From Eledone cirrhosa (lineage: Eukaryota), in NCBI GenBank assembly GCA_964016885.1, contig OZ024742.1, forward strand, positions 143,220,001-143,284,000: DNA of 64,000 nt, written 5' to 3'. Shown in pieces: positions 20,848 through 47,290 of the stretch. The notes under the pieces were generated by a model. The model saw only the letters and a list, made by a program, of their open reading frames with translations, was not told the origin of the DNA and did no database searches. Numbering within the stretch: the first letter of the stretch is position 1; each line of letters starts with the position of its first letter. The position numbers were made by a program, and so were the translations under genes.

Positions 20848-20917
<70 letters not shown>
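20848..20917 (+). repeat. (TCTA)n microsatellite, 5' flank of Tx1-A
   Basis: Direct reading. Confidence 0.95.
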
Positions 20918-21134
20918 AGTCGTGTGTCACTTCGCGGAGAAGTTTCCGTTAATTTATGTAAGGAAAAAACGTGAGTTTTTAGTTCAATTTTATATCATTG
21001 TGTAACTTGACCACCCGTCTGGACCTTCAGGTGGTGGGTCAACTCATTTTCGCCCCTTCAGGGGCGGAATATCCATTTAAAAAATTTTTCTCCATCGAAT
21101 CTTGGAAAAAATATTGTAAAATTTTGATTACGTT

Positions 21135-23051: not shown

Positions 23052-23084
23052 TCTCTTTTCCTCTTTTAACTTTTCAGCACCAAC

Positions 23085-26000
23085 ATGGCCAATATAAGAG
23101 TTGGATGTGTGAATGTACGCGGCCTGGGGATGCCCTGGAAACAGGGCAAACTCTTAAACGACCTCAGGTCGCACAGTTTGGATGTGGTAGCCATTTGCGA
23201 GTCCAGGATCCACGGCGAGCGACAGCTGGCCCCCATCTTCGATGACTTTGAGATCTACGCATCTCTCTGTCAACCGGGGGGTGGGGGCGGAGTTGCCGTT
23301 TTGCTGCGGAAACACCTGGGCCTCGTAACACAGACGGTACATCTGGACCCGGAGGGTCGACTGGTGGTCCTAGACGTTGACGGTAGTGAAGGTGGAGCGT
23401 TCAGGCTGGTGGCCGCATATGCCCCATCCGGGACACCGCGGCCAGACTTCTTCAAACGTCTAGAGACTTTTCTGGGAACGTCCCGCTCCTTGCTTTTAGT
23501 GGGGGACTGGAATGGAATCCTAGATGCACGTTGGGACTATGTGGGAGCATGTCCCGATAAAGGGGGGTGTAACAGCCTCAAACAGTTAATCGACCGATTT
23601 GACCTGGCCGATAGATATCGACTAGATTTTCCGACTGCGCCACTGTGGACGTGGAGTAATCGTAGCGGAACATCTAGATCGTACCTAGATAGGGTTCTAG
23701 TTAGAAATAAGGATAGGGACATGTTAAGCTGTCCACAAATGTTCATGGTTGCCTATTCAGATCACAAACTAGTGACCTGCATGGCCAACCTTGATAGAAC
23801 CCATAGACAAGGACCCGGCTACTGGAAGCTGAACTTGTCGTTACCGACAAGCAAAGCCTACAGTAGACGGATTAGCACTTTAGTTAAACAGCACTTGACA
23901 GGCGCCATTGTCAACAACAGATGGTGGTACTCTCTCAAGAGGGCAGTTAGATTAGACTCGATAGTTTTTAGTAAAGAATTAGCGTTAGATAGAAATAGAA
24001 CCGAGAAGGAACTGGTAGATAAAGTAGAAGAGGCAATTAGAAGTGGCAACGTAGCCAGCGTGCTAGCAACGAGAACGGCCTTGGACCAGTTCTTCGACGC
24101 AAAGCACGAGGGCTGCGTTGTCAGAAGCAAAATACGTGCTCTGGGAAACGAGGGAGCCAAAGCTGTTAGCTGGGCCCGAGTGACGGAGGCAAAAAGTGGC
24201 AACAAGTCCACGATTCGGTCTTTGAAGGACCAAAACGGACGCGTGATACGTGAGCCGAAGCAGATGTGTGCGGCTTTTCAGCGGCACTTTGCTCGGCTGT
24301 TCGGGGGGAGCGGCGCGCCGGGAGAGGCTATGGATTTCGGTCCATACCTCGACGGCCTACCGCGACTCTCGGACAGCGAGGCGAAGTTCTGCGAAAAGCC
24401 GATTTCAGCCACTGAGATAGGGGACGCGCTGAGCCAATGCGGCAAACGCAAATCTCCAGGTCTCGACGGTCTACCCTACGAATTTTACGTAGCAATGCCG
24501 GACTTATTCTCCGGTCTCCTGGAAGCGGTCTACTGCAACTGGCAACAGAACGGGAGAATTCCCAGTTCTGTAACCGGGGGCGTGGTCACACTAATCAGGA
24601 AGGACGAGAATAAGGGGGATGACATAGGCAACTTCCGGCCCATAACTCTGCTAAACACAGAGTTACAGATTTTGGCCAAGGTGTTGGCAAAGAGGCTGGC
24701 GCTTGTCGTCGAGAACCTGGTGGGAGAAGCGCAGACATGCGCGATCCCGACCAGGTCCATACACGACAACCTCCACCTCATGCGATACATCATAGAGAGG
24801 GTAGGGTGTAAACCCGGCTTCGGTGGGGCCCTGATCAACTTGGATCAGTCTAAGGCTTTCGATAGGGTTGACCATCGTTACCTGGATGCGGTGCTCGAGG
24901 CGGCAGGCTTCGGACCCGTGTTCAGGGGCTGGATTGCTGCAATGCACAACAGCAACATCTGCTCAAGGGTCAAGGTGAACGGTTACCTCTCGGAGCCGTT
25001 CCATATTACGCGATCCATTCGACAGGGATGCCCTCTCTCCTCCCTTCTGTACGTACTGACTCTCGAGCCACTACTGCGGAAGCTGGAGCTATTGCAGGGC
25101 ATCCCTCTGGAACCGGGACTGCGGAAAGCGGCGTCGGCCTACGCCGACGACGTGACAGTAATGGTGTCGAGCGCCTCGCAAATCGAGGAAGTCGGCACCT
25201 TACTAAAGGAATACGAAAGTCTCACAGGAGCGAAGCTGAACCGGGACAAGTCCATCGGTTTGCAACTCGGATCGTGGAGAGGCAGACCGATGCCTTCCGA
25301 TGGCGTCGTCGGACGCTGGACGGAAGGACCGGTAAAGCTGCTCGGGGTCTGGTTTGGTCCGGACCTCCAGGTGGAGAAGAACTGGAACGAAGTGACGGCC
25401 AAGGTGTTTGCACTCACCCAGAAGTGGGCCGAGTGCAAACTATCCTTGAAAGGTCGAGCGGAGGTGGCGAACACTTTTATAGCGTCCGCCATCTACTACC
25501 GCTTGACCGTCGTGCCTTGTCCAGCCAAAACGCTCGCCAAAATGGAGCGCGCCCTCTTCCGATTCCTTTGGAAGAGGCGGGCTCCTTTGGTAAGAAGATC
25601 CATCTGCTGCCAACACCCTTCTAACGGAGGGCTGGGGATGCCGTGGTTGACGATGCGCAAACACGCGCTCAGGCTGCGGCATCTCTACGTATTCCTCACC
25701 GGACAACCGGTGTGGGCCCCGTTCGTGAGGCGAGCCTTCCCACGACTCGTCTCGCTGACCGAGCTGCAGTCCTGGGTCAAGCAGAGACCGAGGAAAATGG
25801 GCGACTGGCACATCGAATGTGCTCAGGCGCTCACAGCCCTCTGGCAGGCGGACCCGGCGATCAGTGGAGACTCCACTTCGTCATTCTATAGAGGGTTGGT
25901 CCGCAGCAAGTGCGACGACGCGCTCGGTGAAACTCTAGGCGTGGAGGAAGATGAACTGGCCAGTCTGTTCGGTAGGACCTTCCGCCCGGGACCGATGGAC

Positions 26001-26522
26001 AACTTCCAAAAGTCCCTGGCCTGGCAGTGCTACCGAGGAGCTCTACCAGTTCGAGACAAGCTCTACAGACATGGGCGCCCGGGCAGGGACCCTGCAAAAA
26101 AGATCTGTCCGAGGTGCGTGCGAGACGAAGAAACCGTCGCGCACGCATTCATACACTGCCCGGGCGTCACTGACCTGTGGGGCTATGTAGAACGACTATT
26201 GTCGCGGGTGGGACCAATCCAGTTGACCACCGAGTCCATTGTCATGATCAAACCGCCACCCTCCTTCAAAAACGAAGGAGAGGCGGTTTTCCTTTGTGTG
26301 ATAGCTATGGCGAAAGAGGTTGTATGGTGGACAAGGTTGAAAGGGCTGAGGTCAGACACCTTTCTCTCCGGCCAACAACTGATTCTTTTTTTCAAATACC
26401 ACTTTGGAAGAAGAATCAGGATGGAGAGAGAGGTGCTGTACCCCAGCAAGTTTTATGAAAGGTGGGTGAAAGTGGCGAGAATGGCCCGAGTGAATGGGCC
26501 TTCTCTCTATATCAGCCTGTAG
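23085..26522 (+). CDS. ORF2: APE endonuclease, RT, CCHC zinc finger
   Basis: NVRGL, GDWN, YLDR, SDH, GYWKLN, KSPGLDG, FRPITLLN, DQSKAFDRV, RQGCPLS, YADD, GGLG, CPRC...HAFIHC. Confidence 0.96.
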   Translation: MANIRVGCVNVRGLGMPWKQGKLLNDLRSHSLDVVAICESRIHGERQLAPIFDDFEIYASLCQPGGGGGVAVLLRKHLGLVTQTVHLDPEGRLVVLDVDGSEGGAFRLVAAYAPSGTPRPDFFKRLETFLGTSRSLLLVGDWNGILDARWDYVGACPDKGGCNSLKQLIDRFDLADRYRLDFPTAPLWTWSNRSGTSRSYLDRVLVRNKDRDMLSCPQMFMVAYSDHKLVTCMANLDRTHRQGPGYWKLNLSLPTSKAYSRRISTLVKQHLTGAIVNNRWWYSLKRAVRLDSIVFSKELALDRNRTEKELVDKVEEAIRSGNVASVLATRTALDQFFDAKHEGCVVRSKIRALGNEGAKAVSWARVTEAKSGNKSTIRSLKDQNGRVIREPKQMCAAFQRHFARLFGGSGAPGEAMDFGPYLDGLPRLSDSEAKFCEKPISATEIGDALSQCGKRKSPGLDGLPYEFYVAMPDLFSGLLEAVYCNWQQNGRIPSSVTGGVVTLIRKDENKGDDIGNFRPITLLNTELQILAKVLAKRLALVVENLVGEAQTCAIPTRSIHDNLHLMRYIIERVGCKPGFGGALINLDQSKAFDRVDHRYLDAVLEAAGFGPVFRGWIAAMHNSNICSRVKVNGYLSEPFHITRSIRQGCPLSSLLYVLTLEPLLRKLELLQGIPLEPGLRKAASAYADDVTVMVSSASQIEEVGTLLKEYESLTGAKLNRDKSIGLQLGSWRGRPMPSDGVVGRWTEGPVKLLGVWFGPDLQVEKNWNEVTAKVFALTQKWAECKLSLKGRAEVANTFIASAIYYRLTVVPCPAKTLAKMERALFRFLWKRRAPLVRRSICCQHPSNGGLGMPWLTMRKHALRLRHLYVFLTGQPVWAPFVRRAFPRLVSLTELQSWVKQRPRKMGDWHIECAQALTALWQADPAISGDSTSSFYRGLVRSKCDDALGETLGVEEDELASLFGRTFRPGPMDNFQKSLAWQCYRGALPVRDKLYRHGRPGRDPAKKICPRCVRDEETVAHAFIHCPGVTDLWGYVERLLSRVGPIQLTTESIVMIKPPPSFKNEGEAVFLCVIAMAKEVVWWTRLKGLRSDTFLSGQQLILFFKYHFGRRIRMEREVLYPSKFYERWVKVARMARVNGPSLYISL

Positions 26523-26782
26523 GTTGAGGAAAAGGAGGAGGAGAGGAAAGGAGTACAAGCTCTTCGTACTCCTGGAGATGAGGGTTGCACATTTTTTTCG
26601 GGGGTCTGTGTTACCCATATAAACTGTCTCCCTCTATTGGGGAAAATCGACTAACTTTTAAATTCCATCTGTGATAACATTTTACACGTTTTTATTGTAT
26701 GTAAACTTCCCCCTTTGTATTTGTCCCCTTCTTTTGTGCCCCTGTGGCTAATAAAGAAATATATCTATCTATCTATCTATCT

Positions 26783-27029
26783 GAGGGAGCACCCCCTCTC
26801 TGTGCTCCTGAGGAAAAGGGTTGCACACTTTTTTCGGGGGTGTGTGCGACCCCCCAAGGCGCCTCCTCTCTATTGAGGATTTTGTTAAAAATTTTATTTT
26901 TTGTTATATCTTATTTTATTTTTATATTTTGTTATTGCCTCCTCCTTATTGAGGACGCCTTTTTGTGTAAACTCCCCCCTTTGTACTTGTCCCACTTTTG
27001 ATGCCCTAGTGGCAAATAAAAGAAACATA
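26783..27029 (+). mobile_element. Tx1 3'UTR-only insertion (closer to copy C)
   Basis: gggagc...aaaagggttgcacactttt...gccctagtggcaaataaa, followed by (ATCT)n. Confidence 0.85.
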
Positions 27030-27048
27030 TCTATCTATCTATCTATCT

Positions 27049-28615
27049 GATTCTTTTTTTAAAATACCACTTTAGAAGAAGAGTCAGTAATGGTGTCGAC
27101 CGCCTCGCAAATCGAGGAAGTCGGCACCTTACTGAAGGAATACGAAAGTTTCACAGGAGCGAAGCTGAACCGGGACAAGTCCATCGGTTTGCGACTCGGG
27201 GTCTGGTTTGGTCCAGGTGGAGAAGAACTGGAACGAAGTGACGGCCAAGGTGTTTGCACTCACCCAGAAGTGGGCCGAGTGCAAACTATCCTTGAAAGGT
27301 CGAGCGGAGGTGGCGAACACTTTTATAGCGTCCGCCATCTACTACCGCTTGATCGTCGTGCCTTGTCCAGCCAAAACGCTCGCCAAAATGGAACGCGCGC
27401 TCTTCCAATTCCTTTGGAAGAGGCGGGCTCCTTTGGTGAGAAGATCCATCTGCTGCCAACACCCTTCTAACGGAGGGCTGGGGATGCCGTGGTTGACGAT
27501 GCGCAAACACGCGCTCAGGCTGCGGCATCTCTACGTATTCCTCACCGGACAACCGGTGTGGGCCCCGTTCGTGAGGCGAGCCTTCCCACGACTCGTCTCG
27601 CTGACCGAGCTGTAGTCCTGGGTCAAGCAAAGACCGAGGAAAATGGGCGACTGGCACATCGAATGTGCTCAGTCGCTCACAGCCCTCTGGCAGGCGGACC
27701 CGGCGATCAGTGGAGACTCCACTTCGTCATTCTATAGAGGGTTGATCCGCAGCAAGTGCGACGACGCGCTCGGTGAAACTCTAGGCGTAGAGGAAGATGA
27801 ACTGGCCAGTCTGTTCGGTAGGACCTTCCGCCCGGGACCGATGGACAACTTCCAAACGTCCCTGGCCTGGCAGTGCTACCGAGGAGCTCTACCAGTTCGA
27901 GACAAGCTCTACAGACATGGGCGCCCGGGCAGGGACCCTGCAAAAAAGATCTGTCCGAAGTGCGTGCGAGACGAAGAAACCGTCGCGCACGCATTCATAC
28001 ACTGCCCGGGCGTCACTGACCTGTGGGGTTATGTAGAACGACTATTGTCGCGGGTGGGACCAATCCGGTTGACCACCGAGTCTATTGTCATGATCAAACC
28101 GCCACCCTCAAACCGCCATCAAAAACGAAGGAGAGGCGGTTTTCCTTTATGTGATAGCTATGGCGAAAGAGGTTGTATGGTGGACAAGGTTGAAAGGGCT
28201 GAGGTCAGACACCTTTCTCTCCGGCCAACAACTGATTCTTTTTTTCAAATACCACTTTGGAAGAAGAATCAGGATGGAGAGAGAGGTGCTGTACCCCAGC
28301 AAGTTTTATGAAAGGTGGGTGAAAGTGGCGAGAATGGCCCGAGTGAATGGGCCTTCTCTCTATATCAGCCTGTAGGTTGAGGAAAAGGAGGAGGAGAGGA
28401 AAGGGGTACAAACTCTTCGTACTCCTGAAGATGAGGGTTGCACATTTTTTCGGGTGAATGTGTTACCCATATAAACTGTCTCCCCCTATTGGGGAAAATC
28501 GACTAACTTTTTAAATTGCATTTGTGATAACATTTTACACGTTTTTATTGTATGTAAACTTCCCCCTTTGTATTTGTCCCCTTCTTTTGTGCCCCTGTGG
28601 CTAATAAAGAAACAT
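27049..28615 (+). mobile_element. 5'-truncated Tx1 copy, nearly identical to A
   Basis: Matches about 25157-26762 with internal deletions, a stop and a frameshift. Ends in (ATCT)n. Confidence 0.93.
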
Positions 28616-28657
28616 ATCTATCTATCTATGTAAGTATGTATGTATGTAGGTATGTAT

Positions 28658-29191
28658 TTGACTGCCGAGTCCATAGTAAGGATCAAACCGCCAACTTCTT
28701 TCAAAAACGAAAGAGAGGCGGTTTTCCTCTGTACAGTGGCTATGGTGAAAGAGGTTATATGGTGGACGAGATTGAGAGGACTGAGGACAGATGCCTTTCT
28801 CTCCAGACAACAACTCATTCCCTTCTTTAGATACCACTTTAGAAGGAGAATCAGAATGGAGAGAGAGGCACTGCACCCCAGTAAATTTACTGAAAGGTGG
28901 GTGAATGTGGCAAAAATGGCCCGAGTGATTGGGCCTTCTCTGTATATAAACCTGTAGGTTAAAGAAGAGAGCAAAAGGAAGAAGGGAGCACTTGCACAAC
29001 ACGCTCCTGAAGTTGAGGGTTGTTCTATCGACGGGGTATTAAACAACCCATTTGTGGCGCCTCCCCTCTATTGGGGATTTCGATTGTTATAATTGTTTGT
29101 TTCAATATTTTTACACGACTGTATGTACAATCCCAGGCATGTGTCTTTGTATTGTCCCCTTTTATTGTGCGCCCTTGTGGCAAATAAAGAA
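28658..29191 (+). mobile_element. 5'-truncated Tx1 copy of another subfamily
   Basis: LTAESIVRIKPP...ARVIGPSLYINL*, then 3'UTR and (ATCT)n. Confidence 0.9.
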
Positions 29192-29774
29192 ATCTATCTA
29201 TCTATCTATCTATCTATCTATATAGCTAGCTAGCTATCTGTATATCTATCTATATATCTATTTGCTCTTGTATCAAATAAAGAAATCTATCTGTATATCT
29301 ATTTAAACTATCAGTCAACAATAATCGCACTACCTCTACTACAAACATCACAGCCACCTTCATCAGCATCGTCATCATTATCACTCCTACTATAAAACCA
29401 CCACCACTACCATCACCACCACCACCACCACCACCACCCTCCTCATCACCTCTATTTCAATCCTTTCATCTATAATCTTCGTCAGTAAAAAATATATCTT
29501 TTCTATCTCTGTCTCTCAATTTGATGTTATATCTCTTTAACCTCTCTCACTCTCTCTCTGTATCCATCTTTGTCTATCTCTATGCCCCACTAAATCGGAC
29601 TATCTGACCCTCTCTTTCTCACTTTCTCTATCTTTCCCTCAGTTTGTTTTTGCATTTCTTTTTCTATGTAGGTATGATATGTCAGTCTCTAAATGTTGAT
29701 ATATGTGTCATATTTATATAGAACACAAATACTCGACACTAACATTTAATATTTCATAAATATTTTACATTAGC

Positions 29775-29860: not shown

Positions 29861-29879
29861 GAATAATGATAATAATGAT

Positions 29880-30217
29880 TTCTACTATAGGCACAAGGCC
29901 AGTAATTTTTTTTTTGGGGGGGGGGTCGATCATATCGACCCCAGTTTGTGACTGGTACTTTATTTTATCGACCCCGTAAGGATGAAAAGCAAAGTTAACC
30001 TCGGCGGGATTTGAATTCAGATCATAAAGAGCCGTAACTCTCTGCTACAAAGCATGGTGTCTGACCCTCTACCGATACTGCCAATCCACCGCCCTTGATG
30101 ATAATAATAATAATAATTGTTTCTGCTTTCGACCTTAGTGCATTACTAGCACTTTATTTATCGACCCCGTAAGGATGAAAGACAAAGTTAACCTAGGCGG
30201 GATTTGAATTCAGAACG
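29880..30217 (-). mobile_element. Two tandem SINE family 1 copies (29880-30096 full, 30118-30217 partial)
   Basis: atcgaccccgtaaggatgaaa...ggcgggatttgaa...ctgccaatccaccgccc, with (TAA)n tails. Confidence 0.88.
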
Positions 30218-31225
30218 TGTGCCCATAAAGATGGCAACGAGGTATCTTCCCTTCAACACTGATATCGAATTCTACTCCCCCTGGCAAGTTTTGTGGTTTG
30301 ATGTGGAGGAGTACCTCCACACTGATCTCAGACTAGTTTTCTCTTTTAGTAATCTTCACCTCGAGAAAGGTTTCGCTTCCCATGATGACCACGCAAGCTA
30401 GGATTTATCAGATATCCAGCTCTGGCGGGATTCCTGCAATTCTGACCTTTACGGTCCTTCTTCCAAGGTACGCTGGATAGAATACGAATTTGTCTGTCTG
30501 GCAGAGGACCATAGAATGTTTCACGACTAGGGTTTCACTCTTGAGCATTGAAGTTATACCATACTGCCTCACTTTAGCAATGTGCTGGTGCTCCAGCAAT
30601 GTGGTTTTCTGTAGTTTTCAACCTCATGTGGAGGTACTGCCCCCGAACGTCTAGTTTTTATCGAAACACATTTATAGGTAAGAGTCATTTTCGCAGTTGT
30701 TGCCCACACCTCAGGCGAGACGGCTATGTCAGCTTTAGTTTTGTCCAATTTCACAAGTTTGGTTGGTTGTGCCAAACAGATGTCTTTGTTCAAAATGTCG
30801 AAATTGAACATTTAGGGGTGATTAGCAGCCGCTCCATGTGAATGTGTTGTTGTTAATGTTGTTTTTGTTGATGTTGTTATTGTTGCTCGTGTTGTTGTTG
30901 TTGCTCGTGTTGTTGTTGTTGTTATTTTCGTTGTTTGATTCTGTTATATTTGTTGTGGCAGAGGTGTTTGTGGTGTTGGTACTGGTGTTAGTTTGATGGT
31001 GTTGGTGGTGGAGGAAGCAGCGTTCTTGCTAGTATTGTTGTCGCTTTTAGTTGTTATTATTTTCTTTTGTTGTTGTTGTGATGGTGGTGGCGGTGTTGAA
31101 GCTCACGCAGATACTGGTTAGTTTAACAGCAAAACAGTAACAAAGCTCAATACATACAATATGTTGAATAACTGTGAAAATAGAACAAACTTACAGGAGC
31201 GATGTGAACTACCCCTCGAAAGATT
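30218..31225 (-). pseudogene. Decayed 5' part of a Tx1 element (copy D: 5'UTR + ORF1 N-half)
   Basis: RQYG...LKSETLVVKHSM...FYPAYLGRRTVKVRIAGIPPELDI, homologous to ORF1 of copy B. Asn/Thr-rich N-terminus. Confidence 0.8.
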
Positions 31226-31257
31226 CAACAACAAAGATAGTAATAATAAAAATAATG

Positions 31258-31640
31258 GTTTCTGATTAAGGCGCAAGGCCAATAATTTTTAGGGTGGGGA
31301 AAGTTGATTAAATTGACCCCTGTGTGTTACTGGTGCTTAATTTTATCGACCCCGTAAGGATGAAAAGCAAAGTTAACCTCTGCGGGATTTGAGCTCAGAA
31401 CGCAAAGGGCCATAACTCTATACTGCAAAGCAGGGTGTTCGACGCTCTATCGATTCTGCCAATACACCGTCCTTATATAATAATAATAATAATGTTTCTA
31501 CTTTTGGCACAAGGTCAGCAATTACCCCAGTGCATTATTGGTGCTTTATTTTATCGACCCCATAAGGATGAAAGGCAAAGTTAACCTCGGCTGGATTTGA
31601 ACGCAGAACGAAAAGGGCCATAACTCTATTTTGCAAAGCA
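31258..31640 (-). mobile_element. Two tandem SINE family 1 copies (31258-31473, 31494-31640)
   Basis: Same diagnostic motifs, separated by (TAA)n. Confidence 0.88.
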
Positions 31641-31660
31641 TAATAATAATAATAATAATA

Positions 31661-31691
<31 letters not shown>

Positions 31692-31944
31692 TGATTTCAT
31701 TTATTGGCCACAAGGGCCGACATATAGGGGACAACACAATAGACAGGGACAGTGGGGGTTTACATAGAGATCGAGTAAGTATAAATAACAAAAAACAAAA
31801 TAACAATAAAAATACAACAATGAAAGTTCCCCAATAAGAGGGATCACCACCCAGGGTTGACTCAAGCACCCCACCAGTCCTGAGCCACCCGACGCTCCTA
31901 GGGCACCCGGGAAGGGCACCCCTCTCCTTCTCGAATTCACCAGC

Positions 31945-34900
31945 CTACAGGCGCATGATCAGAGTAGGCCCACTCACGCGGGCCATTCTCGCCACATTCA
32001 CCCACCTTTCAGTAAATGTACTGGGGGGCAGCACTTCTCTCTCCACCCTCACCTTCCTTTCCAAGTGAAACTTGAAGAAGTTGATGAGGGATTGGCCGAA
32101 GAGAAAAGTGTCTGTCTTCAGTCCTTTCAACCTGGTCCACCATGCAACCTCTTTCGCTACTGCCACCAGGCAGAGGAAAATTGCCTGCCCTTCCTGACCA
32201 AAAGAAGGCGGCGGGTCAATCTTCACTATGGACTCGGACGATAGCCGGATCCGTTCTACACGCGACAATAGCTGTTCGACATAACCCCACAAGTCAGCAA
32301 TGCACGGACACTGGACGAGTGCGTGCAGAACGGTTTCGTCGCTCTGCGCGCATCTCGGGCAGGTTCGTCTGACAGCACTTCCGTGCCTGTAGAGTTTATC
32401 CCGAACCGGCAGCGCCCCCCGGTAGCACTGCCAAGCGAGGGATTTCTGGAAGTTATCCATCGTCCCCGGTTCGAAAGTCCTCCGGAACATACTGGTCAGT
32501 TCTACTTCGTTGACGCCCAGAGCCTCTCCTAGTACGTCATCGCACTTGCCCTCCACTAATCCTCTATAGAAATCTTGAGTGGAAGTTCCACTGACCGCAT
32601 TGCCCACCTTGCAGAGTGCAGTGAGCGCCTGGCAACATTCCAGATGCCAGTCGCCCAGTCTCGGTCTCTTCTTGACCCAGGACTGCAGCTCAGTCAAAGA
32701 GATGAGCTGCGGAAAGGCCCGTCTAACAAACGGCGACCACACCTGTTCACCGTTTAGGCAAAATATCTGGAGATGTCGCAGCCTCAGCGCATGTCTGCGC
32801 ATCATTAGCCACGGCATGCCCAGCCCTCCACGAAGAGGGTGCTGGCAGCAGATGGACCGCCTCACCAACGGGACCCGTCCCCTCCACAAAAATTTGAAAA
32901 GGAGCCGTTCCAAATTGGCGAGGCGTGGACGGGGGCAAGGCACGACGGTCAGGCGGTAGTAGATGACGGACGCGATGTACGCGTTCGCCACCTCCGCCCG
33001 CCCTTTCAGTGATAGCTTTCTCTCAGCCCATTTCTGGGTGAGGTTGGCTATCCTGCTCGTCACCTCGTCCCAATTCTTATCCACCTGGAGGTCTGGTCCG
33101 AACCAAACCCCGAGCAACTTTACCGGTCCGTCTGTCCAGCGCCCAACGACGCTGTTGGACGGCATGGACTTGCCTCTCCAGGTGCCGAGCTGCAAGCCCA
33201 CCGACTTTTCCGGGTTAAGTTTTGCTCCCGTCAACCTTTCATATTCCTCCAAATGGGTGCGGATCACCTCGATTTCCGAGGTGTCCGACACCATCACGGT
33301 GATGTCGTCCGCATAAGCGGACGCAGCCTTTCTGCGTCCCGGTTCGAGCGGGATGCCCTGCAACAACTCCAGCTTCCGCAGTAGAGGCTCAAGAGTCAAT
33401 ACGTACAGAAGTGAGGAGAGAGGGCACCCCTGACGGACCGATCGAGAGATCTGAAACGGTTCCGAGAGGTGGCCATTAACTTTGACCACCGAGCAGATGC
33501 CGCTGTACATTGCAGCGATCCAGCTTCTGAAGACGGGGCCGAAGCCAGCCGCCTCGAGGACAGCCTCCAAGTACCGATGGTCGACCCTATCGAATGCTTT
33601 CGATTGATCTAAATTGATCAGAGCCCCACCGAAGCCAGGTTTGCACCCAACCCTCTCTATGATGTATCGCATGAGGTGGAGGTTGTCGTGTATGGACCTG
33701 GTCGGGATTGCGCAAGTTTGCGCCTCCCCAACCAAATCTTTGACGACAAGCGCCAACCTTTTCGCTAACATCTTGGCCAAAATCTTAAACTCTGTGTTGA
33801 GCAGGGTTATGGGCCTGAAATTATCTAGTGTGTCCCTCTTGTTCTCGTCTTTCCTTATCAGCGTCACTACGCCACGGCTCACAGAACTGGGAATGCTCCC
33901 GTTCTGCTGCCAGTTGCAGTAGAGCGCTTCGAGGAGATCGGAGAACAAGTCTGGCATATTTACGTAAAGCTCGTAGGGCAGACCATCCAAACCGGGTGAC
34001 TTGCGACTCGAGCAGCCGACAAGGGCGTCCTGAATTTCGACTGATGTTATCGGCTCTTCGCAGCGCTCAGCGTCGGCCGTCGAGAGGCGTGGCAAGCCGT
34101 CGAGGTAGGGACTGAAGTCCGCCGCCGTCTCCGACTCACCCATCCTCCCGAACAATCGAGCAAAGTGCTGGCGAAAGGCCTCACACATCTGCTTGGAATC
34201 GCTCAGTTCGTGTCCATCTCGATCCGTCAAAGACCGAATTGTGGTTTTATTTCCACGCTGCGTCTCTGCAAAGCGAGCCCATCGGGCAGCTTTGGTTCCC
34301 TCGTTCCTCAGAGCACGCGCCTTAGCTCTGACAATGCAACCTTCGTGTTTCGCATTGAAGAAATGGTCTAGTGCCATTCTCGCCGCTAGCACGCCTGTTG
34401 CAATGCCACTACAAATAGCCTCGTCTAACTTAGCTATCAGCCCCTCCTCCTTTCTATTTTTCTCTATTGCTACTTCTTTGCTAAATCCTATCGAGGTTGC
34501 TCTAATCTCTCTTTTGAGTGCCCCCCACCACCTGTTGTTGACAACCCCCCCTGTCAACTTTTGCTTAACTAAGTTGTTGACCCGGTCCCTGTAAGCTTTA
34601 CGTGCCGGAAACGACATGTTTAGCTTCCAGTAGCTAGGTCCTAACCTACGTGTCTTATCTAGGTCGACCATACAGATCACAAGCTTGTGATCTGAATAGG
34701 CAACCGTTTTAAAATGTGGACATCCTACACTATTTCTATCTCTTTTCCTAATGAAAATCCTATCTATGTACGATCTAGATGACCCTATGCGATTGGTCCA
34801 GGTCCATACTGGCGCATTAGGGAAATCTAGTCGGTACCTGTCAGACAGTTGAAACTGGCTGATCAGGTACTTGAGGCTTTTGCACCCCCCGCTCCTATCA

Positions 34901-35364
34901 GATACTCCCACACAATCCCAGCGTGCTTCTAAGATGCCATTCCAATCCCCTATTAACAGTAAAGGGCGAGACGTAAGCAGAAAGTTTTCCAGGCGCCTAA
35001 AGAAGTCCGGCCGACCGGCCCCAGTAGGGGCGTAGACGGCCACCAGTCTAAAGGCACCACCTTCGCTATTGCTCACGTCCAGGACCACCAACTTTCCGTC
35101 AGGATCCCGGAAGATTGACCTTACCTCGAGATCCAGACATTTCCTAAACAGCACAGCCACTCCACCTCCCATTCCCGGCCGACTAACAGATGCAAAGATC
35201 TGATAATCGTCGAAAATCGGCGCCAGTGCGCGTGTGTCGGAAATTCTGGTCTCGCTGATGGCAATTACATCCATTCCTAGTGACCTGAGGTCGTTGAGCA
35301 AGTGACCTTGCTTCCAGGGCGACCCCAGGCCACGAACATTTAAACTTCCTACTCTTATGGCCAT
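31945..35364 (-). CDS. ORF2: APE endonuclease, RT, CCHC zinc finger
   Basis: 1139 aa, collinear with ORF2 of copy A. YADD; CPRCAQSDETVLHALVQC. Confidence 0.96.
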   Translation of the reverse strand: MAIRVGSLNVRGLGSPWKQGHLLNDLRSLGMDVIAISETRISDTRALAPIFDDYQIFASVSRPGMGGGVAVLFRKCLDLEVRSIFRDPDGKLVVLDVSNSEGGAFRLVAVYAPTGAGRPDFFRRLENFLLTSRPLLLIGDWNGILEARWDCVGVSDRSGGCKSLKYLISQFQLSDRYRLDFPNAPVWTWTNRIGSSRSYIDRIFIRKRDRNSVGCPHFKTVAYSDHKLVICMVDLDKTRRLGPSYWKLNMSFPARKAYRDRVNNLVKQKLTGGVVNNRWWGALKREIRATSIGFSKEVAIEKNRKEEGLIAKLDEAICSGIATGVLAARMALDHFFNAKHEGCIVRAKARALRNEGTKAARWARFAETQRGNKTTIRSLTDRDGHELSDSKQMCEAFRQHFARLFGRMGESETAADFSPYLDGLPRLSTADAERCEEPITSVEIQDALVGCSSRKSPGLDGLPYELYVNMPDLFSDLLEALYCNWQQNGSIPSSVSRGVVTLIRKDENKRDTLDNFRPITLLNTEFKILAKMLAKRLALVVKDLVGEAQTCAIPTRSIHDNLHLMRYIIERVGCKPGFGGALINLDQSKAFDRVDHRYLEAVLEAAGFGPVFRSWIAAMYSGICSVVKVNGHLSEPFQISRSVRQGCPLSSLLYVLTLEPLLRKLELLQGIPLEPGRRKAASAYADDITVMVSDTSEIEVIRTHLEEYERLTGAKLNPEKSVGLQLGTWRGKSMPSNSVVGRWTDGPVKLLGVWFGPDLQVDKNWDEVTSRIANLTQKWAERKLSLKGRAEVANAYIASVIYYRLTVVPCPRPRLANLERLLFKFLWRGRVPLVRRSICCQHPLRGGLGMPWLMMRRHALRLRHLQIFCLNGEQVWSPFVRRAFPQLISLTELQSWVKKRPRLGDWHLECCQALTALCKVGNAVSGTSTQDFYRGLVEGKCDDVLGEALGVNEVELTSMFRRTFEPGTMDNFQKSLAWQCYRGALPVRDKLYRHGSAVRRTCPRCAQSDETVLHALVQCPCIADLWGYVEQLLSRVERIRLSSESIVKIDPPPSFGQEGQAIFLCLVAVAKEVAWWTRLKGLKTDTFLFGQSLINFFKFHLERKVRVEREVLPPSTFTERWVNVARMARVSGPTLIMRL

Positions 35365-35393
35365 GCTGGCAGGATGAATGGGAGAGGAAAGGT

Positions 35394-37304
35394 TTACTTA
35401 CCTTCCGGGGTCTTGTGAAGGTCGGGTGGTTCGACCTCCATGGTTTGTGGGGTTTCTTTTGGGAACCCCTTTAATAGTCTTGACGTGGGTTTTACGTTCG
35501 GGGTTCCCACATCCCGAGGAAAGCTCTTTCGAATTTCTTTGTATGAAGCGAGCGACATTCGCATCAGAAGCAAATTATCTGGTACGCGAAATGTGCTCGC
35601 TTCAAATGTTTCCCCGTCTTTTTCGATGTTTGTGCTTCGTGCTACATGGGCCATCAATTCCTTGTTGGCCCTTCTGGCAAGCACGAAGTTTTTAATGTTT
35701 TGTTGCTCGGGTTTTATTTGTTCGTGTGATTGTGGTGGTGATAGCTTTGTTAGTGTTGTTTCTATTGTGTCTGCGTTTGTTGTGGGTGGGGTGTCTGTAG
35801 TTTCTGATGTTTGTGTGTCTATTTGTTCTTGTGTCTGTTTAGCTTGTTTGCGTTTGGGGGATTTTGGTGGTTGTGTTGGTGATGCTGTGGGGAAAATGTT
35901 TGTGTGGGTGGTGTGTGTATTTTTTTTTGTGGGGGTGTTTGTGCTTTGTGGATTTCTTTTTTTTTTGTGTTTTGTTTTTTGTATTTTGGGGGACTTTGGT
36001 TTTCCCTCATCTTCACTGCTGGAGGATGAGGGGTCTGTGGCTGTGAGCGTGTTTGTGTCTGAGTGAGTGTTTATGTTCTTGTTCGTGTGTGTATTTTGGG
36101 GGGGAGGGGGAATGGGAGAGCTTTCCTCGTTTCCCCCCTGGGTGTGCAATTTTGGTGGTTCCATTGTTGACGGTGTTGCTGGTGGTCCTTGTCCCGGCGT
36201 CGCCAGCAGTGGAATCTTTCGACCCCTTGCGCTTTTCGGCAGTTGAGGGCAGAAGGCTCGCAAGTGTGTCGTTTCCCCACAAAGGAAACAATGCGGCCTT
36301 TTGCCCTCAGTCATTATATGCAACACCCTCCCGTTTTGGAGGCGGATGTGGTCCGGGATTGCTTTTACGTTTTCGGGTCTGATTTGGAGCAGTATCTCCA
36401 GATCAACCCCGGACCAGTCGTCCCTGGCAGTTCTCGTTGCCTCTACCGGGACTGTATCCGTTCCTTCCACGATTACGCAACCCAGGAGCCACCACATATC
36501 AAGTCCTGGTGGAATCCTGGGAATGCGCACACGTGCTATTCGTTTTCCCATGTGGGAGGGGTACATTATAACCTTGCTGGTTTTGCAAGGGGTCATTGAA
36601 TGCTTCACAGCGAGGGCTTCAGACTTGAACAGCACCGAAACGGTGCCGTATTGCCTGCCCCTCTCTATGAAGTCTGTGTCCTCTCTAATGTATTTCAGTG
36701 CGGCTTCTATATCAGCTTGGGCGATTATCGCTGCCCTCTTTGTCTCTACTGAGATGCATCTGAAATGCACCGTTCTTTTTTCCACTGCCTCAATGGCTTC
36801 TGCCGGGACAGTTAAGTTTGCCCAGGTCTGCTCTTGATTTATGATTTTCCAGGCCTGGGCCAACTTTTCCTCTCTGTTGGTTAAGTCGATGCTGTAGCAT
36901 GGTCTCCTTTTGGCCGCTGCCACAGCAGCGAAGGTGTTCTTGTTGGTGTTGTCACTGTTGTTGTTCTTGTTGGTGTTGCTGCTGCTATTGCTGTTGTTGT
37001 TCTCCCCTGTGTCGTGGTTACCCTCTGTGCTGTTGGCCTTGTTGGTGCTGTTGCTGTCGCTACTATTACTCTCTGTGCTGTTCGTTTTGTTGGTGCTCTC
37101 GCTATTACCACCTTCTGCGCTGTTCGGCTTGTTGGTGTTGGTGTTGTCGCTGTTACCACCTTCCGCGCCGCTCGGCCCGTTGGTGCTGGCACTGTCGCTG
37201 CTCACATTCGTGCTGGTGGCGCTCCTCGCCTCACCTCTGCTCTCAACGCTCAAGTCGTCGTTGCACAACAGCAGACCCGCCTCTAGGGGGCGTGGCTCCG
37301 CCAT
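35394..37304 (-). CDS. ORF1 (gag-like)
   Basis: 636 aa. Zinc knuckle CFLCGETTHLRAFC; same layout as ORF1 of copy A. Confidence 0.9.
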   Translation of the reverse strand: MAEPRPLEAGLLLCNDDLSVESRGEARSATSTNVSSDSASTNGPSGAEGGNSDNTNTNKPNSAEGGNSESTNKTNSTESNSSDSNSTNKANSTEGNHDTGENNNSNSSSNTNKNNNSDNTNKNTFAAVAAAKRRPCYSIDLTNREEKLAQAWKIINQEQTWANLTVPAEAIEAVEKRTVHFRCISVETKRAAIIAQADIEAALKYIREDTDFIERGRQYGTVSVLFKSEALAVKHSMTPCKTSKVIMYPSHMGKRIARVRIPRIPPGLDMWWLLGCVIVEGTDTVPVEATRTARDDWSGVDLEILLQIRPENVKAIPDHIRLQNGRVLHIMTEGKRPHCFLCGETTHLRAFCPQLPKSARGRKIPLLATPGQGPPATPSTMEPPKLHTQGGNEESSPIPPPPQNTHTNKNINTHSDTNTLTATDPSSSSSEDEGKPKSPKIQKTKHKKKRNPQSTNTPTKKNTHTTHTNIFPTASPTQPPKSPKRKQAKQTQEQIDTQTSETTDTPPTTNADTIETTLTKLSPPQSHEQIKPEQQNIKNFVLARRANKELMAHVARSTNIEKDGETFEASTFRVPDNLLLMRMSLASYKEIRKSFPRDVGTPNVKPTSRLLKGFPKETPQTMEVEPPDLHKTPEGK

Positions 37305-37744
37305 GTTTTTTTGAGAAAAAAATTATTATTTTTTTTCAAAATAAAGTTCAAATATTTGGGCCAAAAGGCCCAAATATTATGAGTTATTCCTTCACAGGAT
37401 ACAAATTAATGTCTTATAATGCTTCAGCGGTACAAAAATTAAACAATTCTCTACAATTAATCCTCAAAAAATTGCTTACTCACGGAGCTTCAAAAAACGT
37501 ACATCCACTTTCGTCAATAATAATAATAATAATTTCAAACATAGGTGCAAAACTACCCATAACTTATAGGAGTGCAACTAAATACCCCACGGTTTTTTCT
37601 CTGGTATCACCGAAGAAAGAAAGAGCCAAACTAAATACTATTAAGCTCAAATGTCGAATGCAATGCTGATAAGTAAAGAGAAAGAAGCGAACACTACTTT
37701 TAACTTTCTTTCTCAGCACAAAAAATACATAACATACACAGCTT

Positions 37745-41573: not shown

Positions 41574-41662
<89 letters not shown>
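41574..41662 (+). repeat. (TCTA)n microsatellite, 5' flank of Tx1-C
   Basis: Direct reading. Confidence 0.95.
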
Positions 41663-41663
<1 letters not shown>

Positions 41664-41863
41664 GATAGAGTGAGACACGCTTCACATCGGCTCTGCTATT
41701 CTATCGGAATTTACCCTTACTATAGTAAGTACCAGTGAATTTTTTCAATGCAACACATTTGGAACACGTACCCCTGTTATTTAGGGAAACATTTTTATAT
41801 TTACCCCCTTTTTAGGGGGTAAAATAAATAACTATTTTTCTGTAAAACTTCTTTCTTTGACGC

Positions 41864-43668
41864 ATGGCGGGAAAGATGGCAGACATGTCTGCCATTAGCT
41901 CTGCCACGCCCCCCAAGTCTGAAGAACAAAAAATAGATACAACAAAACTAGACAACGAAACAAACAAACAATGAAAATGAAAAAACAAATGTTACGGAAA
42001 TGAGCAAACGGAAAACAAACAAACAGAAAATAAGAATACAAAAAACAACAAGGCAACTTTCGCCCAGACAACAAAAAAATCTATAATATATACACCTATT
42101 GACTTGACTGACGCCAGAGAAAAACTGGCAAAAGCAAAAAAGCACATAGTCTTGGGGGAGAACGGAATGTTTTCCATTAATTCCCCCCCAGAATTCAAGA
42201 AAACGAGACTAGAAAACACTGTTCTGTTTAGAACAATTCTAAACCACACGAGAAAGCCAGCACAGCCCAGCCAAATGGAGATAGAGTTGGTCCTAAAAGA
42301 CTATATGAAGAATATTCTCTTCATACGAAAGGACCGACTCCATGGCAGCATTTCTGTTTTAACAAAAGACAAGGAAACAGCACAGAGGCTTTCCCTAAGC
42401 CCACTCTCAACAACAGCATACAGTTTCTATCCCTCCTACATGGGTAGAACTCAGAGAGCCAAAATACAGACAATGCTGCCCACAATGGACTTCTGGTGGG
42501 CTATTGCTGGCTTCATAGACATGGGCGAGGACACAGTGCTGTCAATGGGGAAGGCATCTGGAGATGCGTTCCTGGGAATGGGCCTCGACCTACTAGTCCA
42601 AATGAGGCCCGAAAGAATAGCGCAAATCCCGGATCGCATCTGGCTGGATGACCTCACCCCAATATATATAATTGTAGAGGGGAGAAGACCAGCATGCTAT
42701 TCATGCATGGAAAGGGGACACGTTAAGGCTAACTGCCCGAATCATATCCCCCAAAAAGGACTATTGCCCACATCCACCACAAACAGTACACCAACACCAC
42801 CCACCTCCAAAAATACACTAATACCACACACAGCAAACAAAATACAGACACCACCAACCACAAGCACAACACAAACATCACCACCACCAGCACCAACCAC
42901 AACACAAACATCACCACCACCATCACCAACCACAAGCACGACACAAACATCACCACCACCACAAAACACATTCCAAACTAATAATAAAAAAAACAGCAAC
43001 AAATCTACCCCTCCCGCAAAAAAAACAACCAGACACCACGTCCCTCCCACCTAGCGCTGAAGAGTTTCCCCCAACTTCTGAAGAAGAAGGAGGAGAAGCC
43101 TTCAGACAAGTTAAAAGAAAAAAACGAAAGCACACACCCAGCACACCACAACAACAAATAACCTACACACAAACACCAACTCCAATCAAAAACACCACAC
43201 CCTCGACAAACAAAAATAAATCTGCGCCTCCCCTCTTCGAAACATTGACAGCATCACAAAAAAAGACGTTGCAATACACATATATAAATAAAGAAAACAA
43301 AAAACTGTTTAAATTAATAAACAATAGCCCTTTGGTGCAGACCGAAGGGCCAAACTTTATCTCAACAGAGAACTTCACCCATTTAAAAATGATAAAGGTC
43401 CCTCTGGACCTTTATCGTTCCTTAAAAGAACAATTTAAACAGGACGTGAGCCCCCTCCTGTTTAAAACCGTTAAATCGCGTCCTCTTGAAAGATTTCCCC
43501 ATAACCTCCCCTCTCCCTGACACAACTCCAAATACCCCAACCCCACCACACTCGGATACCCCCACACCACCACAAAACATCCCTCCACCCAACACACCCG
43601 ACCCCATGGAAATTACACAACCCGGAGAGGTAGGTGCTTTTCTTTCTTCACTTTCAACACCAAAATAG
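41864..43668 (+). pseudogene. ORF1 pseudogene
   Basis: ENGMFSINSP.E, CYSCMERGHVKANC, YTYINKENK, PMEITQPG in shifting frames. Confidence 0.88.
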
Positions 43669-46600
43669 ATCAATTGAGAGTTGGCTGTTTGAATGCGCGT
43701 GGCCTGGGCTCAGCTTGGAAGCAAGCAAAGCTTCTAAGTGACCTCAGGTCACGAAGTATAGATGTGATGGTTGTTTGTGAGAGTCGGATCAGCAGCGTGC
43801 GACAGCTGGCTCCCGCCTTCGATGACTTTGAGATGCACGCATCTCTCTGTCAACCCGGAGGCGGGGGTGGGGTTGCCGTACTGCTGGATAAACGTCTGGC
43901 TCTCGACGTACAGATTGTTCACTCGGACCCGGGGGGGGGGGGTCGATTACTGGTGCTGGACGTCGGAGGCGGTGAAGGCGGGGCTTTCAGACTGGTCGGT
44001 CTTTATGCCCCCTTCGGGGCTGAAAGAGCCGACTTCTTCCAGCGTCTGGAGACTTTTCTAGGAACGTCGCGTCCCCTGCTTTTAGTGGGGGACTGGAATG
44101 GAATCCTAGATGCGCGTTAGGACTATGCAGGGGCATGTCCCGATAGAGGGGGGTGTAGCAGCCTCAAGGGGTTACTCCATCGATTCGACCTGGTCGATAG
44201 ATTTCGACTAGATTTTCCAACTGTGCCAACCTGGACCTGGGCAAACCGCAGTGGTCAATCTAGATCGTACCTAGATAGGTTTTTGGTTAGGAGTAAGGAT
44301 AAGGACGTATTTAGTTGTCCAGAATTGCTCATGGTTGGCTATTCAGATCACAAATTAGTGACCTGCGTGGTCAACCTTGATAGAACGCATAGACAGGGTC
44401 CCGGTTACTGGAAGATGAACTTGTCCTTGCCGGCAAAGGAAGCTTACAGGAACCGGATTAGTAGCTTAGTTAAGATGCGGTTGACGGGAGCGATCGTCAA
44501 CAGCAGGTGGTGGGTATCTCTAAAGAGAGAGATTAAAGTAAGTTCGATAGGTTACAGTAAGGAACTAGCGGCGAATAGAAATAGGAGGGAAAGGGAGTTA
44601 ATAGATAAACTAGAAGAGGCGATTAGGAGCGAAGACGTGGCCAGAGTGTTAGCGTCGAGAACGGCGTTGAGCCAGTTCTTTGACGCGAAGCACGAAGGCT
44701 GCGTTGTCCGAAGTAAAATACGTGCTTTAGGAAACGAGGGGACCAAAGCTGTTAGCTGGGCCCGCGTGACAGAAGCCAAGAGTGGGATTAAATCCACCAT
44801 TCGGTCTTTGCGAGACCAGGATGGACGGGTGATCCTTGAACCTGAGCGGATGTGCGAGGCACTTTGCTCGACTGTTCGGAGGGGGCGGGGGGCCGGACGG
44901 GGATGTGGACTTCGGTCCATACCTCGACTGTCTACCGCGTCTTTCAAGCGGCGAAGCGGAGTGCTGAGAAAGGCCAATCACAGCCACTGAAATCGGTGAA
45001 GCGCTCAGCCAATGCAGCAGACGCAAATCTGCGGGTCTCGATGGTCTACCATACGAACTTTATTTAGCTATGCCGGTCTTGTTCTCCGAACTCCTCGAGG
45101 CTGTCTATTGCAACTGGCAACAGAATGGGAGAATTCCCTGTTCTGTGACCAAGGGCGTAGTCACGCTAGTGAGGAAGGACGAGAGCAAGGGGGACGACTT
45201 AAGTAACTTTAGGCCCATAACTCTGCTGAATGCAGAGTTACAGATTTTGGCCAAGGTGTTGCCGAAGAGGTTGGCGCTTGTGGTGGGTGGTTTGGTGGGA
45301 GACGCGCTGGATTTCTGCCATGCACAGTGGCAACGTCTGCTCTAGGGTTAAAGTAAACGGCTACCTCTCGGAGCCGTTTCAAATCACCCGGTCCATCAGG
45401 CAGGGGTGCCCCCTCTCCTCCTTTCTGTACGTATTGGCTCTCGAGCCACTGCTGCGGAAGTTGGAGTTGCTGCGGGGCATACCACTGGAACCGGGATTGC
45501 ACAAAGCGGTCTCGGCCTATGACGTAACAGTAATGGTGGCGGACGCCTCGGAAATCGGGGCGATCGCCACCCTACTGGAGGAATACGAAAGGCTGACGGG
45601 GGCTAGGCTGAACCGGGACAAGTCAGTCGGTTTGCAACTCGGAACGTGGAGGGGCAAACCGATGCCGTTAGACGGTGTAGTCGGGCGGTGGACGGAGGGC
45701 CCGGTGAAGCTGCTCGGGGTCTGGTTCGGACCGGACCTCCAGGTGGAGAAGAATTGGGGCGAGGTGACGAGCAGGGTGTTTGCGCTGACCCAGAAGTGAG
45801 CCAAGTGCAAACTATCACTGAAAGGTCGGGCGGAGGTGACGAACGCTTACATAGCGTCCGTCATCTACTACCGCCTGACCGTCGTGCCTTGCCCCAAGGA
45901 AACGCTCACCATCATGGAGCGCATGCTCTTCCAGTTCCTCTGGAAGAAGCGGCCTCCCATGGTGAGGAGATCCATCTGCTGCCAGCACCCTTCGAAAGGA
46001 GGGCTGGGTATGCCGTGGATGTTGATGCGTAGGCACGCATTGAGGCTACGGCATTTACAGGTATTCCTCACCGGTCAGCGGGTGTGGGCCCCGTTTGTGA
46101 GGCGAGCCTTCCCACAGCTCGTCTCGCTCACCGAGCTGCAATCCTGGGTGAAGCAAAGACCGAGAAAACTGGGCAACTGGCACACCGAGTGTGCCCAGGC
46201 GCTCACGGCTCTCTGGCAAGCGGACCCGACTATCAGTGGAGACTCCACCTCGACATTCTATAGAGGGCTGGAGGCTAACAGGGGCGATGACACCCTTGGA
46301 GAGTCGCTAGGCATGGAGGAGGACGAACTGGCCAGCCTGTTCGGTAGAACTTTCGGCCCGGGACCCATGGACAACTTCCAGAGGTCCCTAGCCTGGCAGT
46401 GCTACCGGGGGGCTCTGCCCGTTCGAGAAAAGCTCTACAGACACGGACGCCCGGGCAGGGATCCCGCGAAAAAGATCTGTCCCAGATGCGTGCGCGACGA
46501 GGAAACCGTTGCGCACGCACTAGTACACTGCTCGGGCGTTGCCGATCTGTGGGGCTACGTCGAACGACTGCTGTCGCGTGTGGCGCCGATTCGATTGGCC

Positions 46601-46894
46601 GCCGAGTCTGTGGTGAACATCAAGCCGCCTCCTCCCTTCAGAAATGAAGCAGAGGCGGTCTTTCGGTGCGTAATAGCCATGATGAAAGAGGTTGTGTGGT
46701 GGACGCGCCTGAAAGGTCTGAGGTCGGGTGACTTTCTCTCCGGCCAACACCTGGTTTACTTCTTCCAATACCACTTCGGAAGAAGGATCAGGATGGAGAG
46801 AGAAGTGCTTGGTCCCAGACAGTTTTATGAAAGGTGGGTGAAAGAAGCGAGAATGGCTCGTGTAAATGGGCCTTCTCTCTACATTGTTCTGTAG
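43665..46894 (+). pseudogene. ORF2 pseudogene
   Basis: APE, RT and zinc finger motifs with stops, frameshifts and an internal deletion near 45305. The start position reads ATA. Confidence 0.92.
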
Positions 46895-47290
46895 GTGAAG
46901 AAGTGAAGAGGAAAGGGGGAGCGCCTCCTCTCTGGGCTTCCCCGGCGAAAAGGGTTGCACACTTTTCGGGGGTATGTGCAATCCCCAACACGCCCCCTCC
47001 CTTTTGAGGACTTTTTATTATTATATTATTCTTATTGTTATGCCTTTTTCTTTACTCGCATTTATGTAAACTCCCCCCTGTGTATTTGTCCCTTTCTCTT
47101 GTGCCCTAGTGGCAAATAAAGAAATATATCTATCTATCCATCCATCCATCTATCTATCTATCCATCTATTCTTTTCAATCCATCTCTCTCTCTCTCAATC
47201 TGCCTCTCAACACACACACACACACACATATATATATACATATAATAAGTTGACGGGGTTAGCATGAGTTTCACTGATATATATATATGC

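Follow-up and report, generated by a model that had tools for sequence, protein, structure and literature searches.

Elements at the locus

Seven related pieces of Tx1-like long interspersed elements (LINEs) were found by self-comparison of a 64,000-nucleotide stretch of the genome of the octopod Eledone cirrhosa (contig OZ024742.1, positions 143,220,001 to 143,284,000). This stretch is called the window, and all coordinates refer to it. Three of the pieces are full-length (A, B and C) and four are partial; the open reading frames are denoted ORF1 and ORF2, and the domains of ORF2 include an apurinic/apyrimidinic endonuclease (APE) and a reverse transcriptase (RT).

20918..26761, + strand: copy A, full-length Tx1-like LINE; ORF1 21135-23051 with one CCHC knuckle, ORF2 23085-26522 with the order APE-RT-zf-RVT; both open
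26783..27027, + strand: F1, 245-bp fragment of the 3' untranslated region (UTR) of another family, 71% identical to C
27049..28614, + strand: F2, 5'-truncated copy of the A family, 97% identical to A; the 5' end is rearranged
28658..29191, + strand: F3, 3' piece of yet another family
about 30200..31240, - strand: D, decayed 5' (ORF1) fragment, B-like; the 5' end is approximate
31693..37515, - strand: copy B, full-length Tx1-like LINE; ORF1 37304-35394, ORF2 35364-31945; both open
41663..47126, + strand: copy C, full-length and broken, of a sister family of A

Stops and frameshifts interrupt copy C, which has also lost about 195 bp of the RT region. The first-pass annotation had counted two intact copies, and both ORFs are indeed open in A and B, although open frames do not by themselves imply activity. 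In the final 300 nt of ORF2, F3 is 85% identical to A, 74% to C and 76% to B. The ORF1 remnant of D shares 43% of its amino acids with B and 26% with A.

Microsatellite junctions

The elements are bordered by runs of two microsatellites, and the coordinates of these runs agree with the earlier description of (TCTA)n at both ends of A and C and of (ATT)n at both ends of B.

20848..20917, + strand: perfect (TCTA)n, 70 bp, 5' flank of A
26762..26782, + strand: (TATC)5, 21 bp, between A and F1
27028..27048, + strand: (TATC)5, between F1 and F2
28615..28657, + strand: (TATC)3 followed by (TATG)n, between F2 and F3
29192..29261, + strand: (ATCT)n, distally degenerate, 3' flank of F3
31640..31692, - strand: approximately (ATT)17, 3' flank of B
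37516..37533, - strand: (ATT)6, 5' flank of B
41574..41662, + strand: perfect (TATC)22, 89 bp, 5' flank of C
47127..47169, + strand: degenerate TATC/TCCA run, 3' flank of C

In the orientation of the elements, perfect TATC runs of 70, 89, 21 and 21 nt stand directly 5' of A, C, F1 and F2, and a perfect sense-oriented run of at least 21 nt thus precedes four of the five TCTA-type 5' junctions. The truncated copies F1 and F2 accordingly lie behind their own repeat, but F3 directly follows (TATG)n. B is preceded by 18 nt of ATT and D by a degenerate ATT run. Hence, own-repeat 5' flanks occur at 4/5 junctions of the TCTA type and at the single clear junction (1/1) of the ATT type.

The background was taken as the fraction of oriented window positions with at least 12 nt of the given repeat upstream, and amounts to 0.217% for TATC, 0.056% for ATT and 5.4% for TA; among microsatellite-preceded positions, (TA)n accounts for 55% and TATC for 2.2%. 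Since four of five junctions lie behind a TATC run against a background of 0.2%, targeting is likely. The members of the TCTA stack described below are not independent of each other; A and C, which are unlinked, by themselves give a chance of about 5e-6. The repeat runs of the window comprise 102 of the AT class (3473 bp), 73 of AC (1954 bp), 10 of AGAT (299 bp) and 5 of AAT (104 bp). Eight of the ten AGAT-class runs are at ends of Tx1-like elements, and all five AAT-class runs are on one strand, at the ends of B or at tails of short interspersed elements (SINEs). A TA or CA run stands upstream of none of the seven Tx1-like 5' junctions, in line with the avoidance of these abundant repeats noted previously. 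It is therefore very probable that the TCTA-type elements target their microsatellite, and probable that those of the ATT type do so.

An RTE-like element of the window is placed in (TA)n and provides an internal contrast to the Tx1-like elements. It spans approximately 7530-10861 (+), holds an open 1056-aa APE-RT frame with a weak DUF6451 match, is assigned to its clade by resemblance, and terminates in a short (TAGA)n, which is the repeat of the TCTA tails read on the other strand.

Two same-strand stacks

The elements and repeats form two stacks, each on one strand. On the + strand the order is A-(TATC)5-F1-(TATC)5-F2-(TATC)3(TATG)n-F3-(ATCT)n, and identities together with the tree distinguish at least three families in it. 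On the - strand the order is (ATT)6-B-(ATT)17-SINE-(ATT)5-SINE-degenerate ATT-D, followed by SINE-(ATT)5-SINE. This ATT array runs head-to-tail over 29862-37533 (-) and includes all AAT-class runs of the window. Its SINE-like members are:

29862..30217, - strand: two ATT-tailed SINE-like copies, with the ATT run 30101-30117 between them
31242..31640, - strand: two more ATT-tailed SINE-like copies, with the run 31477-31493; the copy adjoining B has no 5' head

D breaks off at a SINE.

F1 and F2 are broken at unrelated internal points and yet both start behind TATC, so that repeats carried only as tails of the elements do not suffice to account for them. These truncated copies are the best argument in the window against such tails, and the two same-strand stacks make the in-window support for targeting stronger than the first-pass annotation had argued.

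The 5' end of F2 (27049-27199) is a mosaic of two non-adjacent A-family pieces, which suggests template jumps or a later rearrangement.

Proteins and kinship

PF03372, PF00078 and PF13966 are above cut-off in ORF2 of both A and B, and the catalytic motifs NxRG, GDxN, SDH and YADD are intact in both. The structural model of the B endonuclease (predicted local distance difference test score 93.9) has the L1 endonuclease (L1-EN) as its best fold match, and 12/12 of its top matches in the Protein Data Bank are L1-EN or ORF2p. A and B are L1-group APE retrotransposons lacking long terminal repeats. The Tx1 label was taken over from the first-pass annotation and is given by resemblance; no labelled reference (Tx1L, Keno, Kibi or Koshi) was among the proteins retrieved for the tree. 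ORF1 of A, B and C carries one CX2CX4HX4C motif each, and a CCHC zinc knuckle is a feature of Tx1-clade ORF1. The ORF1 look-alikes in the Atlas are CCHC and ZCCHC3-type clusters (0.90-0.92); ORF1 had no Pfam match, and its homologue search retained 0 of 2247 candidates.

The elements had been described as closely related and highly similar. The identities are lower than these words imply: A and B share 71% in ORF2 (endonuclease 66, linker 61, RT 85, C-terminus 70) and 28% in ORF1, and blastn of A against B gave no match across the 5' 2.1 kb. On these grounds A and B, judged by their sequences, are separate families. A and C grouped with a support of 100 in the Shimodaira-Hasegawa-like approximate likelihood ratio test, in a quick tree of almost only unnamed proteins, and on that comparison are sister families. 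Among the close relatives, just one carries a credible host name, a protein of Argonauta hians that is 50% identical over the endonuclease region.

A sister group of ORF2 proteins of about 1150 aa (P0002-P0042), some of them in clusters of hundreds, is 37-45% identical.

3' ends of the elements

The six available 3' ends (A, B, C, F1, F2 and F3) align through AATAAA-GAAA and then change to the repeat of the respective family. None of the six has a poly(A) tail, and the repeat follows AATAAA at a distance of 6 nt in A and C and of 7 nt in B, as the first-pass annotation had observed. Upstream of this signal a structured region is predicted.

31693..31950, - strand: 3' UTR of B, with four hairpins common to the six 3' ends, the last directly before AATAAA

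Two-sided changes occur in 7/25 predicted pairs of these hairpins; the covariation score was reached by 0/500 shuffles and the pair count by 8/500.

Cleavage for polyadenylation usually takes place 10-30 nt past AAUAAA. At the ends described here this distance falls within the repeat, and therefore the RNA should carry a few repeat units.

Endonuclease loops

Two endonuclease motifs had been proposed to sort with the target, and the strings do differ between A/C and B as written. Their places in the B enzyme are:

34780..34794, - strand: betaB6-betaB5 hairpin loop, residues 191-195, with two differences from A
35161..35190, - strand: loop of residues 59-68, which matches the Lys70 region of L1-EN and not the hairpin

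The first motif is thus not the beta-hairpin loop; it aligns with the Lys70 region, which in L1-EN contacts the backbone of the opposite strand (PMC8565326). The second, NRxGx, aligns with the loop grafted in the structures 2v0r and 2v0s, which is the betaB6-betaB5 hairpin (PMC1950540), and this hairpin inserts into the minor groove (PMC8565326). The hairpins of A and B are of equal length and two residues apart. In L1-EN, grafts of the whole loop altered nicking and point changes left its pattern unaltered (PMC1950540).

Positions at which A and C agree and differ from B number 42 in the endonuclease, 49 in the linker, 25 in the RT and 68 in the C-terminus, 184 in all of ORF2, compared with 81 where A and B agree against C and 44 where B and C agree against A. 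The first pattern is the commonest variable one in each ORF2 domain. Therefore the loops sort by ancestry and give no information on function, and their sorting was rejected as evidence of a functional difference. The B-type hairpin string recurs in the relatives P0205 and P0231, while P0201 and P0202, 71-76% identical to B, have other hairpin strings.

Evidence from outside the window

Public contigs of 4 runs, of 24 listed, were aligned to B with its upstream flank. Over the bins from 35549 to 37372 the depth of B is at least 6,600 in run X16 and at least 140,000 in run X1, whereas the flank has 4-23; these are summed depths and do not translate into copy number. B, its 5' part included, is far deeper than the flank in these two runs, and therefore the family is repeated there. 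Among 40 of 1246 difference rows, there are four places of ORF2 where at least 88% of the depth in both deep runs disagrees with B, and three of these four differences are non-synonymous.

The contig alignment leaves out the repeat letters at either junction of B. In X16, the first aligned base of the single-copy flank contig is 37542, and 38 letters of the contig precede it. The contig therefore begins exactly 30 letters ahead of the base at which the ATT run is first broken. With contigs built from 31-mers, as assumed, this start is compatible with further copies that have the 5' ATT run in common, or with an empty allele in which the run is longer. It does not fit random flanks, as far as the 38 unseen letters can be read by inference.

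The flank itself (37534-37700, -) ends in a hairpin, GAAA and ATT, resembling the tail of a retroelement. It is single-copy in the window and of low depth in the aligned runs. Sharing of the SINE tail by this flank was rejected, 891/2000 shuffles being as good.

Relatives in metagenomes are distant, with about 27-35% identity to B (80 kept of 269 loci), and none of the 24 metagenome loci listed has microsatellites on two sides. The viral and prokaryotic collections searched gave no relative.

Possible mechanism and alternatives

The elements, junctions and stacks are as described; the steps that could produce them are proposed as follows. Families of a single L1-group Tx1-like lineage would use target-primed reverse transcription to enter microsatellites that were already present, and the repeat tails of earlier insertions would also serve as targets, giving rise to same-strand stacks. 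The transcript would read past AAUAAA into the flanking repeat and acquire a 3' part with a few UAUC or AUU units, positioned behind a conserved hairpin that ORF2p would recognise. The APE endonuclease would nick a TpA step in a context common to both targets, Y-TAT-Y on the top strand (CTATC, TTATT) and R-ATA-R on the nicked one. The nicked 3' end would then pair with the repeat units of the RNA, and this pairing would choose between TCTA and ATT, so that each family returns to the repeat of its parent. If reverse transcription begins inside the repeat, as proposed, no poly(A) would be copied. As read from the sequence, the Y-TAT-Y core is common to both targets, while (TA)n presents ATATA and (CA)n has no TpA; therefore one permissive endonuclease together with RNA pairing could yield both targets. 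L1-EN reads DNA shape at T-A junctions, with pairing of the RNA and the primer as a further factor (PMC1950540, PMC8565326). At four of the five perfect-run junctions (C, F1, F2 and B, and not A), the T of a TpA step is the last base of the 5' flank, a weak, post hoc count that is sensitive to microhomology. This two-step combination of a permissive TpA nick with RNA-primer pairing is the reading that we favour, with a little less than even confidence.

Several points weigh against it. The flank evidence comes from three unlinked loci with one clear copy of the ATT type, and the 5' flank of F3 is (TATG)n. Read-through and 3' processing of the RNA are assumed. The six related sequences in which the changes were counted are also those from which the UTR structure was predicted, and the last hairpin has no covariation because it is invariant. 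In addition, the endonuclease is held mainly to set the target choice (Kojima 2015, PMC4494074), and the endonucleases of A and B differ at one third of their residues, which would suffice for a genuine change of specificity. In the alternative, the earlier idea of a switch extended beyond the two loops, the A/C enzymes have come to cut (GATA)n and that of B (AAT)n, with the 3' repeats being no more than target DNA. Specificity set by the enzyme is the standard view for the Tx1 and R1 clades (PMC4494074), the second motif does correspond to the minor-groove hairpin whose whole-loop grafts change L1-EN nicking, and the B-type hairpin string is found again in P0205 and P0231. The sorting of the loops is, however, confounded with ancestry (42 such sites in the endonuclease, 184 in ORF2); moreover, the hairpins are equal in length and two residues apart, point changes in L1-EN were without effect on its nicking pattern, and P0201 and P0202 have other strings in spite of their identity to B. 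Divergence of the enzymes is a substantial alternative, to which we give less credence than to the permissive nick with pairing. As regards the target-switch pair proposed earlier, targeting is supported in the window and a loop-driven switch of the endonuclease is not.

Explanations without any targeting fare worse. The repeats might be tails encoded by the elements, with the 5' repeats carried along or produced by slippage and insertion being otherwise random. The fixed-phase 3' repeats behind a conserved end do recall the tails of L2, CR1 and RTE elements, and the 5' run of B has just 18 nt; nevertheless, the truncated F1 and F2 lie directly behind TATC against the background of 0.2%, and the start of the X16 contig, by inference, fits a common ATT run or a longer-run empty allele, which makes this account highly improbable. 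The stacks might instead be by-products, with no preference in nicking or priming: 3' transduction may have taken place, reverse transcription may have switched templates between RNAs packaged together, repeat tails may have recombined, or the insertions may have survived passively in DNA rich in microsatellites. The rearranged 5' end of F2, the truncation of D at a SINE and the headless SINE adjoining B would suit such processes, and passive accumulation has been proposed for Drosophila Waldo-A/B (PMC3812793). They leave unexplained why A and C, at unlinked loci, both have long perfect runs at their 5' ends, and also the avoidance of the far commoner (TA)n, which the RTE-like element does occupy, and we consider them very unlikely as the full explanation.

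A wider proposition can be built on the favoured permissive nick with pairing: that target choice is inherited through the RNA and not through the protein, that the TCTA and ATT endonucleases are interchangeable nickases of TpA in Y-TAT-Y, that a few repeat units transcribed from the previous insertion site direct the next insertion, and that the abundant ATT-tailed SINE may use the machinery of B by means of its similar hairpin-GAAA-ATT tail. Taken as a whole it is unlikely. If RNA-inherited targeting were true, changing the tail would retarget the element.

Relation to known systems

Related Tx1 families with differing microsatellite targets are already published: Kibi on (TC)n and Koshi on (TTC)n in teleosts, and eight crocodilian families on (TTCC)n or (TTTC)n (PMC4494074). 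Like A-C, these are APE elements of the Tx1 group in which related families occupy different microsatellites with a pyrimidine-rich sense strand. The targets in the octopod differ in being (TCTA)n and (ATT)n, with TpA steps, and the flanks of A, B and C are not the Kibi or Koshi repeats. In the rule of Kojima 2015, a family is target-specific when the target is found in more than 20% of its genomic flanks (PMC4494074).

The endonucleases of Xenopus Tx1L and Tx2L were reportedly compared for target specificity by Christensen et al. (Genetica, 2000); these elements form, like A and B, a natural pair of related Tx1 elements. The target of Tx1L is the DNA transposon Tx1D and no microsatellite (PMC4494074). 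Dong elements target (TAA)n (PMC3812793), the same AAT/ATT class as B, and Dong-R4 is active in Octopus vulgaris (PMC13282606). R4 is among the clades with a restriction-like endonuclease (PMC4640811), which Dong uses, whereas B has an N-terminal APE. L1-Tx1 elements have also been recently active in O. vulgaris, with 13 families and 421 insertions, the accessible text saying nothing of their targets (PMC13282606). For RTE LINEs, microsatellites at the 3' end of the RNA were proposed to set the sites of cleavage or priming (Nishiyama and Ohshima 2018, PMC6007223). These LINEs and the SINEs with 3' repeats share the proposed role of the RNA repeat, and differ in clade and insertion signature. 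Human L1-EN (1vyb, 7n8s; grafts 2v0r, 2v0s) has the same fold as the B endonuclease (Foldseek E 7e-20, template modelling score about 0.8), with catalytic motifs and hairpin place alike at 26% identity; human L1 primes on poly(A) at TTTT/AA, while A-C have no poly(A).

The literature searched, with Repbase and subscription papers outside its scope, contained no report of a Tx1 element targeting TCTA or ATT, and none on the targets of Tx1 in cephalopods. Such families may already be listed in Repbase, in Kojima and Fujiwara 2004 or in the supplements of PMC4494074. The A, B and C families add a new host group and targets for which no report was found to an already known phenomenon, microsatellite-targeting Tx1. 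Homing of APE-type LINEs to microsatellites was described as 'not well understood' in a 2013 review (PMC3812793).

On the evidence of the window, either the cutting enzyme or the RNA tail may be the chooser of the repeat. The pair A/B, with endonucleases that are 66% identical, near-identical 3' architecture and targets that share a core, is well suited to a comparison of endonuclease against tail. If the tail decides, target choice would be RNA-programmable within limits and changeable without protein evolution; if the enzyme decides, A and B would be one more pair like Kibi/Koshi or Tx1L/Tx2L. Such insertions may also explain the origin of many TCTA and ATT runs in these genomes.

SINE tails and minor observations

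The dispersed short repeat of the window, which we take to resemble the octopus SINEs, ends in a hairpin with a CTTGT loop followed by GAAA and ATT, as does B.

29876-29912, - strand: SINE tail
31494-31530, - strand: SINE tail
3797-3833, + strand: SINE tail

These three are examples from nine scored tails, which represent one family. Against the end of B their mean score was 15.0, compared with 9.8 +/- 1.3 in shuffles, 5/2000 of which reached it. The ends of A, C, F1 and F3 gave similar scores (11-12/2000), and chance matches in the window score higher. The score is not specific to B, and B as a proven partner of the SINE was rejected; a B-type LINE is a possible partner on sequence grounds. 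In their accessible text, the SINE papers PMC5786205, PMC4758252 and PMC4824008 name no partner for octopus SINEs. An Rfam search of 20000-48000 found nothing.

Hairpins were also noted in the 5' UTRs of the three full-length copies.

21048..21069, + strand: 5' UTR hairpin of A, 9 bp with a 4-nt loop, in a folding window picked by eye
37351..37378, - strand: 5' UTR hairpin of B, 12 bp with a 4-nt loop
41800..41823, + strand: 5' UTR hairpin of C, 10 bp with a 4-nt loop

They are strong, lie 40-65 nt upstream of the ORF1 start, are unrelated in sequence and have z values of -3.9 to -5.6, in folding windows that were picked by eye. Downstream of C, a tandem array (47877-50463) has a unit of 150-175 bp with a (TG)n run of variable length. 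At the edge of the window, 63757-63899 (-) shows a weak 66% DNA match to the Asn-rich start of ORF1 of A, which may be low complexity or another fragment.

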